A stretch of DNA of 8,819 bases from Candidatus Vampirococcus lugosii (GTDB lineage Bacteria > Patescibacteriota > Gracilibacteria > Absconditabacterales > Absconditicoccaceae), in assembly GCF_018420025.1 (NCBI RefSeq), contig NZ_JAEDAM010000055.1:1-8819 (forward strand), given 5' to 3'. Under the pieces are notes generated by a model that made no database searches, was not told the DNA's origin, and saw only the letters and a program-made list of their open reading frames with translations. Shown here in pieces: positions 585 to 8,819 of the stretch. A program made the translations under genes and the position numbers. Numbering within the stretch: the stretch's first letter is position 1; every line of letters begins with the position of its first letter.

Positions 585-971
585 TTAATAAATTAGTTCT
601 CTTTCATCTTTTGATAATTTTTCTATATATATATTTAAATATTCTTTGGATATATATTCTTTTATAAATTTTGGCCATTCTATACATATATATTCATATT
701 CATCAATTTTATCAAAAATTCACATTTCATAAATTTGTTCTATAGATTCTAATCTATACATATCTATATGTAATAATTTTTTGTATTCATTTATATATGT
801 ATATGTTGGACTTTGAATTATATTTTCAGAAATTCAAATTCATTTTGCAAATCATTTAACAAAATTTGTTTTTCCAACTCATAATTCTCAATTTAATAAT
901 ATTTTTTTATATCATTTTTGAGCTATTTTTTCAGCAAATATTTGCATATCTTCACTTGATTTTATTATCAT
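585..971 (-). CDS. tsaE: tRNA threonylcarbamoyladenosine (t6A) biosynthesis ATPase TsaE (YjeE family), 128 aa
   Basis: I checked the table-25 translation triplet by triplet: MIIKSSEDMQIFAEKIAQKGYKKILLNGELGVGKTNFVKGFAKGIGISENIIQSPTYTYINEYKKLLHIDMYRLESIEQIYEMGIFDKIDEYEYICIEWPKF... It carries the Walker A motif GELGVGKT plus the SPTY, DMYRL and IEWP motifs typical of TsaE. There are 7 in-frame TGA, including two Walker A glycines. TAA stops the frame at 585-587, and another TAA sits immediately upstream of the ATG. Confidence 0.85.
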
Positions 972-1357
972 TTATCTTTATAAGAATATATAAAATTAAT
1001 TATATATATTTAATATATTTCAAAAATCAATGTATAATATATTGCTTTATTATTTTATTTTTATAAATTTATTATGATTTATTCTATTTACTTGGGATAA
1101 ATATAAATCTATAAAAAAACAAAATCGTATAAGTGAAAAAAGACTTTTATTATTAGCACTGATATGATGATTTATATGACAATTAATATCTATGATATTA
1201 TTTAATCATAAAACAAGAAAAACTTCTTTTCAAATAAAACTTTTTTTAATAGTTTTATTATGGATTATTTCTATAATAATTTTCTTATATTTTGATTTTG
1301 AATATTAAAAAAATATTATTATAATAATTTATTTAAAAATAAATAATTATTTTAAAT

Positions 1358-3778
1358 ATGGAAAAAAAAATAAATAAATTTTATGAAACAGATGAAATTT
1401 GGGAAGATATAATACAAATGAATGAAAATATATATGAAACATTAATAGATGATGAAGAATATATAAAAATATTATCAAGTATGAAAAATGATTTTTCTTA
1501 TATTTTATTAGATATTATAAAAAATATATATTCAATTGATGAATTTAATAAATTATCTAATGATGATCTGTTTATATATTTTATAAAAAATACAAAAGAA
1601 AAAAATTTAAAAAATATAGTTGATTTATATAATATTACAAGTTGAGAAGAATTTGAATTAATATATAACAATGAATTGCTTAGGAATTTATTAGAATTTG
1701 CAAAAGAAGAAAATTTGGAATTTATTATAAGAATATTTAATAATGTTGAAGATTTTCAAAAAATATATAAAAATACTTATATGGTAAATGTTTTGAAAAA
1801 CTCAAAAGAAGAAAATTTTAGATATGTAATAAAATTATATGAATTAGAACTATTACAAAATCCTGATAATTTTTATGTTTCTAATAATGTTTTGAATATA
1901 TTAAAATATTCAGATTTACACAAATTAAAATATATTATAGATTTATGTAATAATTCACAAGATTTTGAAAATATTTGTAATAATGAAAATCTTATGGAAG
2001 TTTTAAATTTATGAAAAGAAGAAAATATTGAATTATTAATTAATTTATTTGATAATTTGGAAGAACTTAATTATTATTTAAATAATAGAAAAATAGTTAG
2101 AATATTAATTTTTTGAAAGAAAAATAATATTAAATTAATAATGAATTTATCTAATTCTTTGCAAGAATTTAGCGAAATTTGTAAAAATATAAATATATTG
2201 GATATAATGCAATATACAAAAGAAGAATATTTGGAATATATTATATATTTGTATAATATCAAAAATATAAATGAACTTGAAGATGTATTTGATAATGAAA
2301 TTATATTTGATATATGAGAAATAGCTCAAGCTGAAAATATTAATTTTTTAAATCAATATAGAAATCATAATTTAAGTTATAATATAAATAATTATATCAA
2401 AAAAAGAATTTTGGTTTCTCAAAATAATAGTCAAAAATTTTTTACAAAAAATTTTCCAAAATATAAAAATTTTTCAAAATTATTTGAATATTATATAAAT
2501 AATAAACAAAAATCTTTTTTTGATCTTTTGGAAAAAATAAAATTTGTAGAAGAATATTGATTAAATATTAATATAGATAAATTTGAAATTATTGAAAATT
2601 TTGAAAATTATTGAAATATAGATTTTGAAGAATTAAGAAAAAATTTTGAAAAAATAATTGATCTTAATCAGGAAAAACAAAAAAATAAACTTTTGAGAAA
2701 GTTTGATAATTTTGTTAAATCTAAAAATTTTGATTGATTGAAAAATTTTTTGGCTGAAAATTTAATAAAATATTTTGATAGAATTTATGATAAAAAATTA
2801 AAAATAAGAATAATAAATGAACTTAGAAAAAATTTGTGATGAAATATAAATATTTGAAATATTAAAAAATATAAAATAAATGATTTTGATTTTATTGAAG
2901 CATACAAAATGTCTATTAATCCAGCTTATAATAAAGATCAAATAAATAGTTTATTATATAATTATTTGCTTTGAAAATTTGAAAATATACAAGACTGTAA
3001 ACAGTATGATACAGAAAATAATAATAAATGGTTGGCAGAAAATTTAACAGAAGAACAACAAAAAATATGGTTGTCATCAAATAGGGAAGAGATAAGTCTT
3101 GATCAAGAAATTAATGATAAATCAATAAATAATTTAAATAATTTAATAGAAGAAAATTACAATAATTGTATTAATATAATAAATTTAATAAATGAACTTT
3201 GATTTAATTTCAAAACTAATTTTGATAAATATTGACAATTATTGGAATATTACAATATACATATAAAAAATTGTAATAAAGATATAGAAAAAAGAGATAA
3301 ACAAAATTTGACACAAGATTTGGAAAATCAAATTAATTTGATAAAAAAATTATTTAAAGAAAAAAAATGAAAAAATAGCAAAAAAATAATAATAGAAAAA
3401 GAATTAAATCCTATCAAATGTTTGATGATGTGAAATGTAGTAGATTGAAGTTGTATGTCATTTTATTTTCATGAATCAAATTATTATTCATGTATATCAA
3501 ATACTATAGATGTAAATAAATGAATTTTTTATATAAAAAATGAAAAATGAAATATTTTGTGAAGATGTATAATAACAATATGAAATGATAAAAAAATAAG
3601 TAGATATAAAATGTGATATTCGTCAAATATAAATGAACCTATAGATAAATATTTTGATGATTATACTATAAAATTATCAAAAAAAATGTGATTAAAATTA
3701 AATTGAGATCAAAATAAAGTTGAAAATATAGAATGTGATAAATGGTACAAAGATTGAGTAAAAAAAATTATAGAATAA
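1358..3778 (+). CDS. Large hypothetical protein (806 aa): N-terminal tandem helical repeats, Asn/Lys-rich middle, Gly/Cys-bearing C-terminal domain
   Basis: A single frame runs from ATG 1358 to TAA 3776-3778. I checked it line by line and found no TAA/TAG and 24 in-frame TGA. It joins track ORFs 1358-1645 and 1676-2014, which share this frame, and continues 1.7 kb further. An 806-codon frame free of TAA/TAG is very unlikely by chance in DNA this AT-rich. I recognise no family. Confidence 0.85.
1595..2326 (+). repeat. Seven tandem 34-36-aa protein repeats (diverged at DNA level) within the 806-aa CDS
   Basis: The units are KEKNLKNIVDLYNITSGEEFELIYNNELLRNLLEFA / KEENLEFIIRIFNNVEDFQKIYKNTYMVNVLKNS / KEENFRYVIKLYELELLQNPDNFYVSNNVLNILKYS / DLHKLKYIIDLCNNSQDFENICNNENLMEVLNLG / KEENIELLINLFDNLEELNYYLNNRKIVRILIFG / KKNNIKLIMNLSNSLQEFSEICKNINILDIMQYT / KEEYLEYIIYLYNIKNINELEDVFDNEIIFDIGEIA. 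They total 244 aa, which matches 732 nt. The shared pattern is KEEN-h-x-h-h-x-L, a turn, then a second helix-like segment. Confidence 0.6.
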
Positions 3779-4087: not shown

Positions 4088-5017
<930 letters not shown>

Positions 5018-5123: not shown

Positions 5124-5513
5124 TTAAGTTATATTTTTCCAATCAATAATTTCATTATTATTTTTAATTTTCCAATTATATAAATAAATATTAACTTTTT
5201 TATTTTGTAAATAAATTTTTGTCCTTTTATATCTAAAAAGATATACTGATTCTATAAATCAAAGCAATATTATTAAATAATAATATTTAAAAATTGATAA
5301 TTTATAATTATTTATTTCAGCAATTATATAATTTTTTGATTTTGATTTATTTCTAATTAATCACGGACTTATTCATAAATTGTACATTTTGTATCATTCA
5401 AGATTTATTTTTTTGGATAAATAACTTTTTGGTAATAGTTTTGAATATCTCTCTCATTCTCTCAAATTTCAATAATATATAAACCAATAATCTTTTTTTT
5501 TAAATAATTTCAT
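5124..5513 (-). CDS. Hypothetical protein, 129 aa, one hydrophobic segment (possible membrane anchor)
   Basis: The translation, checked triplet by triplet, is MKLFKKKDYWFIYYGNLREGERYSKLLPKSYLSKKINLEGYKMYNLGISPGLIRNKSKSKNYIIAEINNYKLSIFKYYYLIILLGFIESVYLFRYKRTKIYLQNKKVNIYLYNWKIKNNNEIIDWKNIT. It has 6 in-frame TGA, a TAA stop at 5124-5126 and an in-frame stop 6 codons upstream of the ATG. It is absent from the standard-code track. I recognise no family. Support comes from ORF length in AT-rich DNA and host-like codon usage. Confidence 0.6.
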
Positions 5514-6997: not shown

Positions 6998-8578
6998 ATG
7001 AAAAAAATATTATTTATATTTATTGTTATTTTGTTTTGAACAATATGAAAATCTTTTGCAAATTTGGTTGATGTTGTAGAAGAAAAACAAAATAAATTAA
7101 CTTCATCAGTATCTAATAAATATCAAAATTTACAAAATCTATATGAAAATAAAATAAATAAATTAAGTGAAAAAGAATATTATGATATATTAATAGAACT
7201 TGAACAAATAGATTTTTCTGAAATTAAAAAAGAAAATCTTGATAGATATTTTGAAATAGAAGATAAAATAATTAAAGATTTTAATTCTTTCAAAAATAGA
7301 AATAGAAATTTATCTAGAGATTTATCTTTTGATTTAATAGATCAAGATAGATTTGAAACACTTTTAGAATCTTTAAATAATGATATTGATTGAAATATTA
7401 AATATTATGAAGATTTAATAAATCAATATGAAAATAATTATAGTGATAAAATAAATAATTTGAAAAAAAAATATGAAAATATAGTTGACGAAAATCAAGA
7501 TAAAATTGATACTATATTTGATAATATATCAAAAATTGAAAATTTTATTGAAAAATTTAATAATCTCAAAAAAGATATAAATCATATAAATAAAGTTTAT
7601 ATGTGATCTTCATCTACTATTTATGATTTTATAGAAAGTTTTGAACAAGAAACCACTGCTTGACTACAAAAATCATTAAATTCTGAAATTGATAATTATT
7701 ACGATAAATATAAAAATTTTCAAAATTTTTTATGAGAAGATATTGAACAAAAAAAAGATTTATTATTGAAAGAATATAGTAAAGAAATTGATGAATATTT
7801 TCAATGATTGATTGATTGATTTTATTCAAAAAAAGATTATAATGATATTACTTCTTTTTATGAAGAAGTTATAAATAATTATTACAATGATGATGAAATT
7901 TCTTATTCATCAGTTATTGATTTAGATTTATCTTGATTGAATGATTATTCAAATTTAATTGATAAAAATTTGAATAGTATAGATACTAAATTAGACGAGT
8001 TTGATAATGCAAGTGATTATCAAGAGTTAAGAGAAAATTTAATTAATAGATCTGAAGATTTTTATGAATCAAAAAAAACTCAAAAAATAGAAGATATTAA
8101 AAAATATTTGGAAAAAGAACTTGAGTTTTTTATGTTAAAAAGTTCCAAAAATTTATCTATATATAATAATATAAATCAAGATATAGAAGAATTGGAAAAT
8201 TTGAGTACTTGAGAAAAGATAAATAAAATTGATAATATATTAAATTCTATAGAAAATAATCTTGATGAATTTATAGATTTGAATTTAAAAAAAGATTTGA
8301 AAGAACAAAAAAATAATCTATTAGTGAAACAAATAGATTATGAAATAATAAGTAGATGATTACTTAAATATGATATTCAATACTCAAATATATCAGAATT
8401 ATTGGAAAATATACTTAATAATATGTATCAAGAATATTGAGATAAAGAAGATTTTGTGATAAAAATAGAAACTGCTATAAATAATGCTAATGTTTTATTA
8501 CAACAAAATGATTTATGAAAATGAAATAAATATTTGTTGTTTAGAATAAAACAAGCTATGATTAAGTTTTTGAATTAA
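6998..8578 (+). CDS. Secreted/surface hypothetical protein, 526 aa, Sec-type signal peptide followed by a long Asn/Lys/Glu/Asp/Ile-rich predicted coiled coil
   Basis: The frame runs from ATG 6998 to the tandem TAA TAA at 8576-8581, with 14 in-frame TGA. It joins track ORFs 7064-7393 and 7937-8212, which share this frame. The N-terminus MKKILFIFIVILFGTIGKSFA|NLVDV has a KK n-region, a hydrophobic core and an S-F-A cleavage-type c-region. The rest is charged, heptad-like and low in complexity. I recognise no family. Confidence 0.8.
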
Positions 8579-8596: not shown

Positions 8597-8819
8597 ATGT
8601 TTTCTTATAAAAATTATTCCAAAAAATGATTTACATTGATAGAAATGGTTTTAGTTACAATTATTTTGTCTTTGGTGTTTTTAGTAATAATATCTACATA
8701 TTTGGGGATGATAAGTTCTAGAGTACAAATACAAGCTAGACAAACTCTTACTGAAAATACATATTTTATGCTAGAGAGATTAAATGCTGTAGTATCAGAT
8801 TTTACTATAGATTATGAAG
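8597..8819 (+). CDS. Prepilin-type N-terminal cleavage/methylation domain protein (type IV pilin or pseudopilin-like), 3'-truncated by the window edge
   Basis: The translation is MFSYKNYSKKG|FTLIEMVLVTIILSLVFLVIISTYLGMISSRVQIQARQTLTENTYFMLERLNAVVSDFTIDYE. It has the class III signal peptide G/FTLIE with Glu5 and a hydrophobic alpha1-N helix. The cleavage-site Gly is the TGA at 8627-8629. The gene starts 18 nt after the upstream gene's first stop codon and runs off the window. Confidence 0.85.

Follow-up and report, generated by a model that had tools for sequence, protein, structure and literature searches.

Old tandem repeats of variable number and a conserved C-terminal domain in a protein family without a named counterpart, encoded under genetic code 25 in Candidatus Vampirococcus lugosii

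A stretch of 8819 bases of contig NZ_JAEDAM010000055.1 of Candidatus Vampirococcus lugosii, called the window below, was analyzed with respect to one of its genes, located at positions 1358-3778 of the forward strand. Under translation table 25 this gene is complete and codes for a protein of 806 amino acids (aa), followed by a TAA stop. The N-terminal part of the protein carries an array of tandem repeats, 33-37 aa each, and the remainder consists of a middle and a C-terminal domain that are conserved among homologues. The number of repeats varies within the family, and neither the repeat nor the C-terminal domain belongs to a named family. Proteins with scaffolds of tandem helical repeats are well known. 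The present analysis adds a repeat type that has no counterpart in Pfam, NCBIfam, or the PDB.

The periodicity of the segment aa 80-323 was determined by autocorrelation with the BLOSUM62 matrix. Peaks were observed at lags of 34, 70, and 104 residues with z values of 6.3, 5.3, and 5.9, respectively, as compared with a maximum of 4.35 in 1000 composition-preserving shuffles. No such peak was found in the rest of the protein, which is equally biased in composition. The segment is divided into seven tandem units that align cleanly and correspond to nucleotides 1595-2326. An original prediction, made from the DNA sequence alone, had placed a seven-unit helical array at exactly these coordinates, and both the periodicity and the scores given below agree with it. 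In a leave-one-out test with hidden Markov models (HMMs), six of the seven units scored above all 600 controls, and unit 3, which has an insertion, was borderline with a score of 8.1. A family unit HMM was also built from 105 units, all of them derived from other proteins, and used together with 1000 control windows. The seven units scored 16-45 bits with this HMM, while the control windows reached at most 6.6 bits. The segment aa 43-79, which shows the same three-helix pattern in the structural model, scored 10.2 bits. Because it outscores every control, we consider the array to consist of eight units (aa 43-323), one more than was predicted.

The array starts with the degenerate unit 0 (aa 43-79, nucleotides 1484-1594), which lies outside the predicted coordinates. 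It is followed by unit 1 (aa 80-115, 1595-1702, 26.0 bits), with a TGA codon at aa 96, and unit 2 (aa 116-149, 1703-1804, 36.5 bits). The most divergent is unit 3 (aa 150-186, 1805-1915, 16.0 bits), whose insertion is located in the loop between helices A and B. A TGA-encoded Gly ends both unit 4 (aa 187-219, 1916-2014, 45.0 bits) and unit 5 (aa 220-253, 2015-2116, 21.5 bits). The last two are unit 6 (aa 254-287, 2117-2218, 37.5 bits) and unit 7 (aa 288-323, 2219-2326, 16.2 bits), the latter with a TGA codon at aa 320. All these features, as well as the two flanking segments, are on the forward strand. The acidic N-terminal segment (aa 1-42, 1358-1483, isoelectric point (pI) 4.05) scored -0.7 bits with the family unit HMM and is not a repeat unit; it is helical in the model, with low confidence. 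On the other side, aa 324-357 (2327-2428, -3.1 bits) contain no repeat unit by sequence and form a helical linker or cap in the model.

The mean identity among the units is 30% at the amino acid level and 60% in codon-aligned DNA, against 38% expected from composition. The Tandem Repeats Finder program (TRF) detected no array with a period near 102 bp. The repeats of the target protein are thus real, old, and diverged, and the prediction was right that they are well diverged at the DNA level. It was less accurate in stating that each unit opens with K-E-E-N, since only three units do so exactly and the others have KEKN, LHKL, KKNN, or KEEY.

The array can be seen only with the proper genetic code. 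The target gene contains 24 in-frame TGA codons and not a single GGN codon, so that every Gly is specified by TGA. In the window, the thioredoxin reductase gene (trxB) has its GSGPAG dinucleotide-binding motif spelled with TGA, and for this reason TGA is read as Gly and not as Trp. In the target gene, the TGA columns coincide with conserved Gly residues (MMGN, GSCL, IxGR) of relatives with low Trp content, including NCBI table-25 translations. The ClpP, LemA, and TsaE genes of the window are read through TGA and match Pfam models over their full length. The gene follows genetic code 25 (SR1/Gracilibacteria, TGA = Gly), and its close relatives are found in Gracilibacteria and Absconditabacteria. 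Table 11 breaks the gene into many pieces, with the repeat region present as the tail of 1358-1645 and as 1676-2014 and 2141-2317; as had been noticed earlier, the architecture is invisible without recoding. The window is extremely A+T-rich (G+C 13-32%). In the repeat region the G+C content is 13-15%, and Asn, Ile, Lys, Leu, and Glu account for 60% of the residues. Ala is nearly absent from the target protein (7 of 806 aa).

The protein had been described as an orphan, which proved incorrect. An exhaustive phmmer search of 1.84 billion representatives was performed with the table-4 translation as a query, that is, with Trp at the TGA positions. It yielded 138 cluster representatives at E <= 1e-3, including 84 at E <= 1e-10 and 23 at E <= 1e-30. 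By contrast, a word-indexed search with the table-25 sequence recovered the target protein alone, probably because low-complexity words saturate the index and the database translates TGA differently. In the same type of search, the repeat profile gave no match, and the C-terminal profile gave 18 proteins, all of them unnamed or hypothetical. Most database copies contain 3-7% Trp and about 0-2% Gly. As they are Trp-rich and Gly-poor, we conclude that most homologues are table-25 genes translated under table 4. The public copy P0001 (Logan assembly, SRR13241709) is the table-4 translation of the target open reading frame (ORF), with Trp at all 24 TGA positions. The named members are the hypothetical proteins WP_231176292.1 of Ca. 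Absconditicoccus praedator and WP_213348962.1 of Ca. Vampirococcus lugosii. Four genome loci were found in metagenome-assembled genomes (MAGs) of Gracilibacteria and Patescibacteria, including oral GN02-872.

The homologues share the protein in layers. The last 130-150 aa are common to nearly all of them (more than 100 representatives), including proteins of ~1000 aa from genomes of ordinary composition. The region aa 340-806 is common to ~30 closer relatives, and the N-terminal repeats are common to few. Conservation is highest in the C-terminal 460 aa and not in the repeats, and this part, which the original prediction had overlooked, probably defines the function. No meaningful family emerged when the whole protein, three of its sub-regions, and many relatives were scanned against Pfam, NCBIfam, PHROGs, and PADLOC. 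The conserved module had no tblastn match in the phage and plasmid collections.

The unit HMM was iterated over the homologues, and 112 units were collected in 20 proteins. They are most often spaced by 34 aa (42 cases) or 36 aa (28 cases). Across homologues, the unit has the core consensus EENLKYIIKLCKTIEDFEKLCNNENIREIL. The repeat consensus, with a period of 34 or 36 aa, is (A/G)-K-E-E-N-L-x-x-I-I-x-L-C-x-I-x-x-x-E-D-F-E-x-L-C-x-N-x-N-I-R-x-I-L. A survey of repeat number among orthologues, proposed together with the original prediction, revealed that it does vary, from 1 to ~20 copies. There are ~20 units in the Vampirococcus protein P0010, 9 in the Absconditicoccus protein P0004, and 1-5 detected units in the genome orthologues. 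In P0010, moreover, a stretch of at least 40 aa is duplicated exactly at an offset of two units, which indicates that the array has grown by recent unit duplication. The array is acidic in three lineages, with a pI of 4.57 in the target protein and 4.84 in P0010, unlike the middle and C-terminal parts, which are basic.

The repeat is also present in archaea. In a Ca. Altiarchaeales archaeon MAG, very regular 36-aa units were found in two giant partial proteins, RLI91705.1 (P0030, aa 2802-3141, array pI 4.94) and RLI90717.1 (P0057, aa 896-1140, array pI 5.92). RLI91705.1 has, in addition, a transglutaminase-like core at aa 2539-2628. Both proteins are devoid of the bacterial C-terminal module, and the repeat can therefore be regarded as a module that is independent and portable. 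A check of the literature brought up no description of such a repeat; a paper on a 'repeat' of a Gracilibacterium concerns an unrelated PTD tripeptide repeat (PMC6851277).

The structure of the target protein was modelled with AlphaFold. The model obtained from the single sequence had a predicted local distance difference test score (pLDDT) of 35 and was unusable. For the final model, an alignment of 79 architecture-matched rows was used in place of a mixed alignment, in which MAFFT had scattered unanchored repeat fragments across the query. This model, based on a multiple sequence alignment (MSA), has a mean pLDDT of 80.3 and a predicted template modelling (TM) score of 0.69. The pLDDT is mostly 85-98 for aa 330-806 and poor for the first ~50 residues (below 50 for aa 1-42). 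The region between the array and the C-terminal domain (~aa 340-670, nucleotides 2375-3367, forward strand), delimited by the query ranges of homologues, is a conserved all-alpha middle domain with a pI of 8.8 and a pLDDT of mostly 85-98. In the model, the repeat region is helical and ordered, not disordered (pLDDT 55-83), as an earlier suggestion of a helical solenoid would require. Analysis of the model with DSSP indicated three helices in each unit: A of ~10 residues (EENLEFIIRIF), B of ~8 (VEDFQKIY), and C of ~8 (TYMVNVLK). Loops of 3-5 residues separate A from B, and a two-residue kink at the N-x-N position separates B from C. The unit had been described as two amphipathic helix-like halves, a view that the three short helices of the model replace. 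The stacking of these units into a superhelical alpha-solenoid is a putative feature. A Foldseek search against the PDB returned no solenoid among the 50 listed matches.

The most widespread part of the family is the C-terminal domain (aa 676-806, nucleotides 3383-3775, forward strand), a conserved alpha/beta domain modelled with a pLDDT of 83-98. Its motif is E.DPL..L.MGN.V.GSCL...N..S...NA.D.NK.V.Y..D..G.I.GR...RF..Y...WY.D. Among 39 diverse members, there is no variation in the Cys (Cys699), Lys (Lys721), Arg (Arg736), and Trp residues and very little in Glu (with Glu682), Pro, Gly, Asn, Tyr, and Asp. This conserved polar cluster suggests a catalytic or ligand-binding site. The domain corresponds to no Pfam, NCBIfam, PHROG, or PADLOC model. 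In the case of the structural search, almost all of the top 50 Foldseek matches in the PDB were acyltransferases of the GNAT fold (NatD/Naa40, SpeG, serotonin N-acetyltransferase, GCN5/PCAF, L-PGS). They were found with a probability of up to 0.98 over 110-140 aligned columns, a TM score to the target of 0.3-0.48, and an identity of 9-17%. GNAT-like proteins appeared again in BFVD, where the best viral match, with E = 0.009 over 269 aligned columns, was a phage protein that is uncharacterised. In the model, the domain shares with GNAT the element order beta-alpha-alpha-beta-beta-beta-alpha-beta. It differs in length (~130 aa, as compared with ~160 aa for a GNAT domain), and the set of residues conserved in it (E, MGN, SC, N, NA.D.NK, GR, WY.D) does not correspond to the signature of GNAT proteins. 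From beta4 to alpha3 its consensus reads 'RF..Y.......L...F..Y', and no Gly is conserved there. The C-terminal domain is best regarded as an unnamed family whose predicted fold weakly resembles GNAT, and it is probably not a canonical acetyl-CoA enzyme.

Two other relationships of the C-terminal domain were considered and rejected. The PcfJ-like family (PF14284) resembles it in that a helical region precedes a C-terminal domain of ~140 aa, which has one conserved Cys in 'x-C-[VL]' followed by beta-strands, and two PcfJ proteins were among the Foldseek matches in BFVD (probability 0.15-0.16). The PcfJ motif is, however, EG..xRHCVG, as opposed to E.DPL..L.MGN.V.GSCL in the family studied here. 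PF14284 was absent from 48 + 39 members, and hhalign against pCF10 PcfJ gave a probability of 0.14%; the founding pCF10 PcfJ itself matches PF14284 at 1e-43. A match of the C-terminal profile to ribosomal protein S8 in the PDB (47 residues, E = 0.003) was judged to be due to chance, and no convincing PDB relative was found by sequence.

Two further observations concern single relatives. In the distant member P0138, aa 556-717 gave weak matches (E = 0.001-0.02) to four PADLOC candidate defence models named PDC-S35. These matches cover mainly the region immediately before the conserved C-terminal domain, overlap its start, and were seen in only one of the seven members scanned. At locus L007 (5351-8837), the 278-aa protein P0153 is a stand-alone homologue of the C-terminal domain. 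It is located directly downstream, and on the same strand, of an 866-aa gene that has no Pfam match. The two may represent a split or mis-called full-length member of the family.

With moderate confidence, we interpret the target as a modular cytoplasmic protein in which the acidic three-helix array would be a protein-binding platform for a conserved effector module. The protein consists of three modules: the acidic repeat array at aa 43-323, the basic helical middle at ~340-670, and the C-terminal alpha/beta domain at 676-806. A cytoplasmic location is probable because no signal sequence can be recognised at the N-terminus, as judged by inspection. The array would act as a platform or adaptor of variable length that recruits or positions a partner for the middle and C-terminal module. 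This module would form the functional core and be either enzymatic or ligand-binding, with the invariant Cys at the centre of the site. Changes in copy number by unit duplication would adjust the platform in length or specificity from one lineage to another. The existence and homology of the repeats, their recurrence in the family in variable number, the domain layout, and the lack of a named family are shown by the data, and the functions of the array (protein binding) and of the C-terminal domain (catalysis or ligand binding) are putative.

Several results weigh against this interpretation. Every named source labels the members of the family as hypothetical, and no partner, ligand, or activity is known for any of them. 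No conserved or informative neighbourhood was found in the window, at the four genome loci, or on two contigs with stand-alone homologues of the domain. The AlphaFold model was made on the table-4 translation, in which Trp replaces all 24 genuine Gly residues; 10 of these positions, among them those of the MGN and GSC motifs, fall in the C-terminal domain. The confidence of the model is moderate over the repeats, with a pLDDT of 55-67 at aa 80-180 and of 65-83 at aa 180-330. The Foldseek E-values in the PDB are weak, ranging from 0.24 (the best) to 1.6, and none is <= 0.001. Motif A of GNAT, the Q/RxxGxG/A loop for the pyrophosphate of coenzyme A (CoA), is absent between beta4 and alpha3, and none of the 39 domain sequences matches the Pfam acetyltransferase models (Acetyltransf, FR47) at E <= 10.

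The same data could be explained if the array bound nothing specific and served, as a rigid helical spacer or an oligomerisation rod, to set the conserved C-terminal module at a given distance or valency. The ~20-fold variation in copy number next to a constant C-terminal module fits this explanation. So does the pattern of conservation, as the conserved positions of the unit belong mostly to the hydrophobic core (L5, I8/I9, L11, F18, L31) and the polar positions vary widely. However, conservation between bacteria and archaea extends to the polar K-E-E-N signature and to Cys/Tyr at position 12, which goes beyond the needs of a pure spacer, and the repeat is reused by unrelated giant archaeal proteins. 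We consider a mere spacer unlikely.

The relationship of the unit to known repeats was analyzed in several ways. A search with the target array, 18 related arrays, and the clean archaeal arrays gave no match at E <= 10 to any TPR, Sel1, ARM, HEAT, ANK, PPR, PUF, mTERF, or TALE model, and a PDB sequence search with the whole protein gave no match. The remark in the original prediction that the unit fits no known consensus was thus upheld by the Pfam, NCBIfam, and PDB sequence and profile searches. It had also compared the unit length with that of TPR, Sel1, and ARM, and its interpretation as a whole is partly supported. TPR and Sel1 repeats share with the target the ~34-36-aa unit, the all-helical tandem array, and the general role of a scaffold. 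Their units are two-helix hairpins with a W/L/G/Y/A/F/A/P pattern, whereas the target units have three helices in the model and lack this pattern. Membership in TPR (W4 L7 G8 Y11 A20 F24 A27 P32) was rejected on the basis of the missing model match and the three helices per unit. Membership in Sel1, which has a two-helix unit of 36-44 aa with an Ala/Gly pattern, was rejected on the basis of the missing match and the low number of Ala residues. The three-helix form is nearer to ARM, PUF, or FliG.

ARM and FliG repeats are typically scaffolds for protein-protein interaction. The ARM-type proteins (Armadillo, ARM_M/ARM_C of FliG, the N-domain of MgtE) resemble the target array in being built of tandem units of three short helices, and it could be argued that the repeat is a very divergent FliG/MgtE_N-like member of this superfamily and not a new type. 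The best PDB match of a three-unit repeat profile was Helicobacter pylori FliG (3usw), with a weak E-value of 0.069. It was aligned as 'FEDIVKLDNFAIREILKVADKKDLSLALK', and the FliG_C segment FEDI..LDD..IR.IL..VD...L..ALK can be aligned plausibly with helices B-C-A' of the unit. Weak matches to Pfam MgtE_N were found in two repeat-bearing relatives, with E = 7e-4 in one of the 18 arrays and E = 0.0064 in P0045. All these matches are below the curated (gathering) thresholds, the target protein has no FliG or MgtE_N match, and hhalign of the repeat profile against Escherichia coli FliG gave a probability of 0.25%. Three helices per unit are present in the target model (pLDDT 55-82), but the canonical ARM unit has ~42 aa as compared with 33-37 aa here, no match to the Arm profile was obtained, and the K-E-E-N...F...C/N signature is not that of ARM. 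We record the likeness to FliG and MgtE_N as a resemblance in form, and find true membership in the superfamily rather doubtful.

A bolder variant of the modular interpretation concerns the C-terminal part. The middle and C-terminal module could be a new enzyme family with a GNAT-like fold that has lost the CoA loop, and the array could direct a new protein-modifying activity as a programmable targeting device. In such a case, an acyl- or aminoacyl-type transfer or a thiol-dependent modification would be carried out by the invariant Cys with the help of Lys, Arg, and Glu. The rapidly expandable repeat would steer the enzyme to varied protein substrates in the code-25 predatory or epibiotic bacteria. 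We rate this proposal as improbable.

It was also considered whether the array could be a modular nucleic-acid reader similar to PUF, TALE, PPR, or mTERF proteins, with one base or a short stretch read by each unit. The units of PUF (with three helices), TALE, and PPR measure 36, 34, and 35 aa, respectively. Pumilio/PUF is similar in its 36-aa three-helix unit and about eight tandem copies, and the unit length of 34-36 aa, the variable copy number, and the basic adjoining domains would suit such a reader. Nevertheless, PUF arrays are basic RNA-binding crescents, whereas the target array is acidic (pI 4.6), as are the arrays of every lineage checked (pI 4.57-5.92). No Pfam PUF, PPR, mTERF, or TAL model matches at E <= 10, and the unit consensus has no conserved exposed basic or aromatic position, which makes this explanation very improbable. 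The last explanation, that the periodicity is an artefact of A+T composition (low complexity rich in N, K, I, and E, suggested by the low G+C content and the five dominant residues) or that the gene is not real, is effectively refuted by the shuffles, by the aperiodic remainder of the same composition, by the 138 homologous representatives, by the TGA codons that align with Gly, and by the Altiarchaeales proteins, whose ordinary composition rules out such an artefact for the repeat.

A polymorphic toxin or secreted effector was rejected as well. No signal sequence was seen by inspection, the C-terminus is conserved and the N-terminus variable, and there was no PADLOC match. The genes downstream differ between the family loci (trxB, an L25-like gene, EF-G).

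The family is of interest for more than one reason. The unclassified repeat spans candidate-phyla bacteria with table 25 and archaea of Altiarchaeales, and in bacteria it is joined to a conserved unnamed C-terminal domain found in >100 protein clusters. The gene is kept in very small genomes, including that of Ca. Absconditicoccus praedator (a contig of 1.13 Mb). Members of 800-1300 aa are retained by Ca. Absconditicoccus praedator and Ca. Vampirococcus lugosii, which are predatory or epibiotic, and this suggests that the function matters to genomes of ~1 Mb. Public resources read TGA as a stop or as Trp, and the family consequently appears fragmented or mistranslated, with the false look of an orphan. 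If the C-terminal domain proves to be an enzyme, both pieces would merit new family definitions; otherwise, their description would be a matter of routine domain annotation.

The neighbours of the target gene in the window are housekeeping genes. Under table 25 the window shows a series of ordinary genes, which besides the target include TsaE (585-971, minus strand, also supported by Pfam), a DUF1294 membrane protein (1030-1308, plus strand), trxB (4088-5017), the LemA and ClpP genes on the minus strand, a gene for a coiled-coil protein, and a pilin-like gene. The orthologues in the four MAGs adjoin differing housekeeping genes (EF-G, NAD kinase, CoaD/CoaE, L25, PriA), and no signal of an operon, a mobile element, or a defence island was found around the examined loci.

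Codon usage in other genes of the window was also recorded. All Gly codons are TGA in the gene for a 526-aa coiled-coil protein (14 of 14) and in the DUF1294 gene (4 of 4). The ratio of TGA to GGN is 22 to 13 in trxB and 12 to 3 in the ClpP gene. The reassigned stop TGA is thus preferred for Gly in this genome, presumably as a result of A+T pressure. A 129-aa ORF between trxB and lemA (5124-5513, minus strand) contains six TGA codons under table 25 and has no Pfam match.

A perfect tandem repeat of 60 bp (2.3 copies, 100% identity, TRF score 274) was found at positions 263-399 of the window, inside an ORF at 223-525 on the plus strand. It encodes 'NDSWDGFDWEETWDDTVETV' units of a small Trp/Asp-rich protein without a Pfam match, and its local G+C content is 32%, as compared with ~15% for the rest of the window. 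It looks like a recent expansion, unlike the old repeats of the target protein. The 526-aa protein mentioned above is encoded at 6998-8578 on the plus strand and has a signal-peptide-like N-terminus, a long coiled-coil-like sequence, and sub-threshold Pfam matches only. Directly after it, a gene at 8597-8819 (plus strand), which runs off the window, contains a prepilin N-terminal methylation motif (N_methyl, E = 1.4e-6), and the two genes may form a type IV pilus-related pair.

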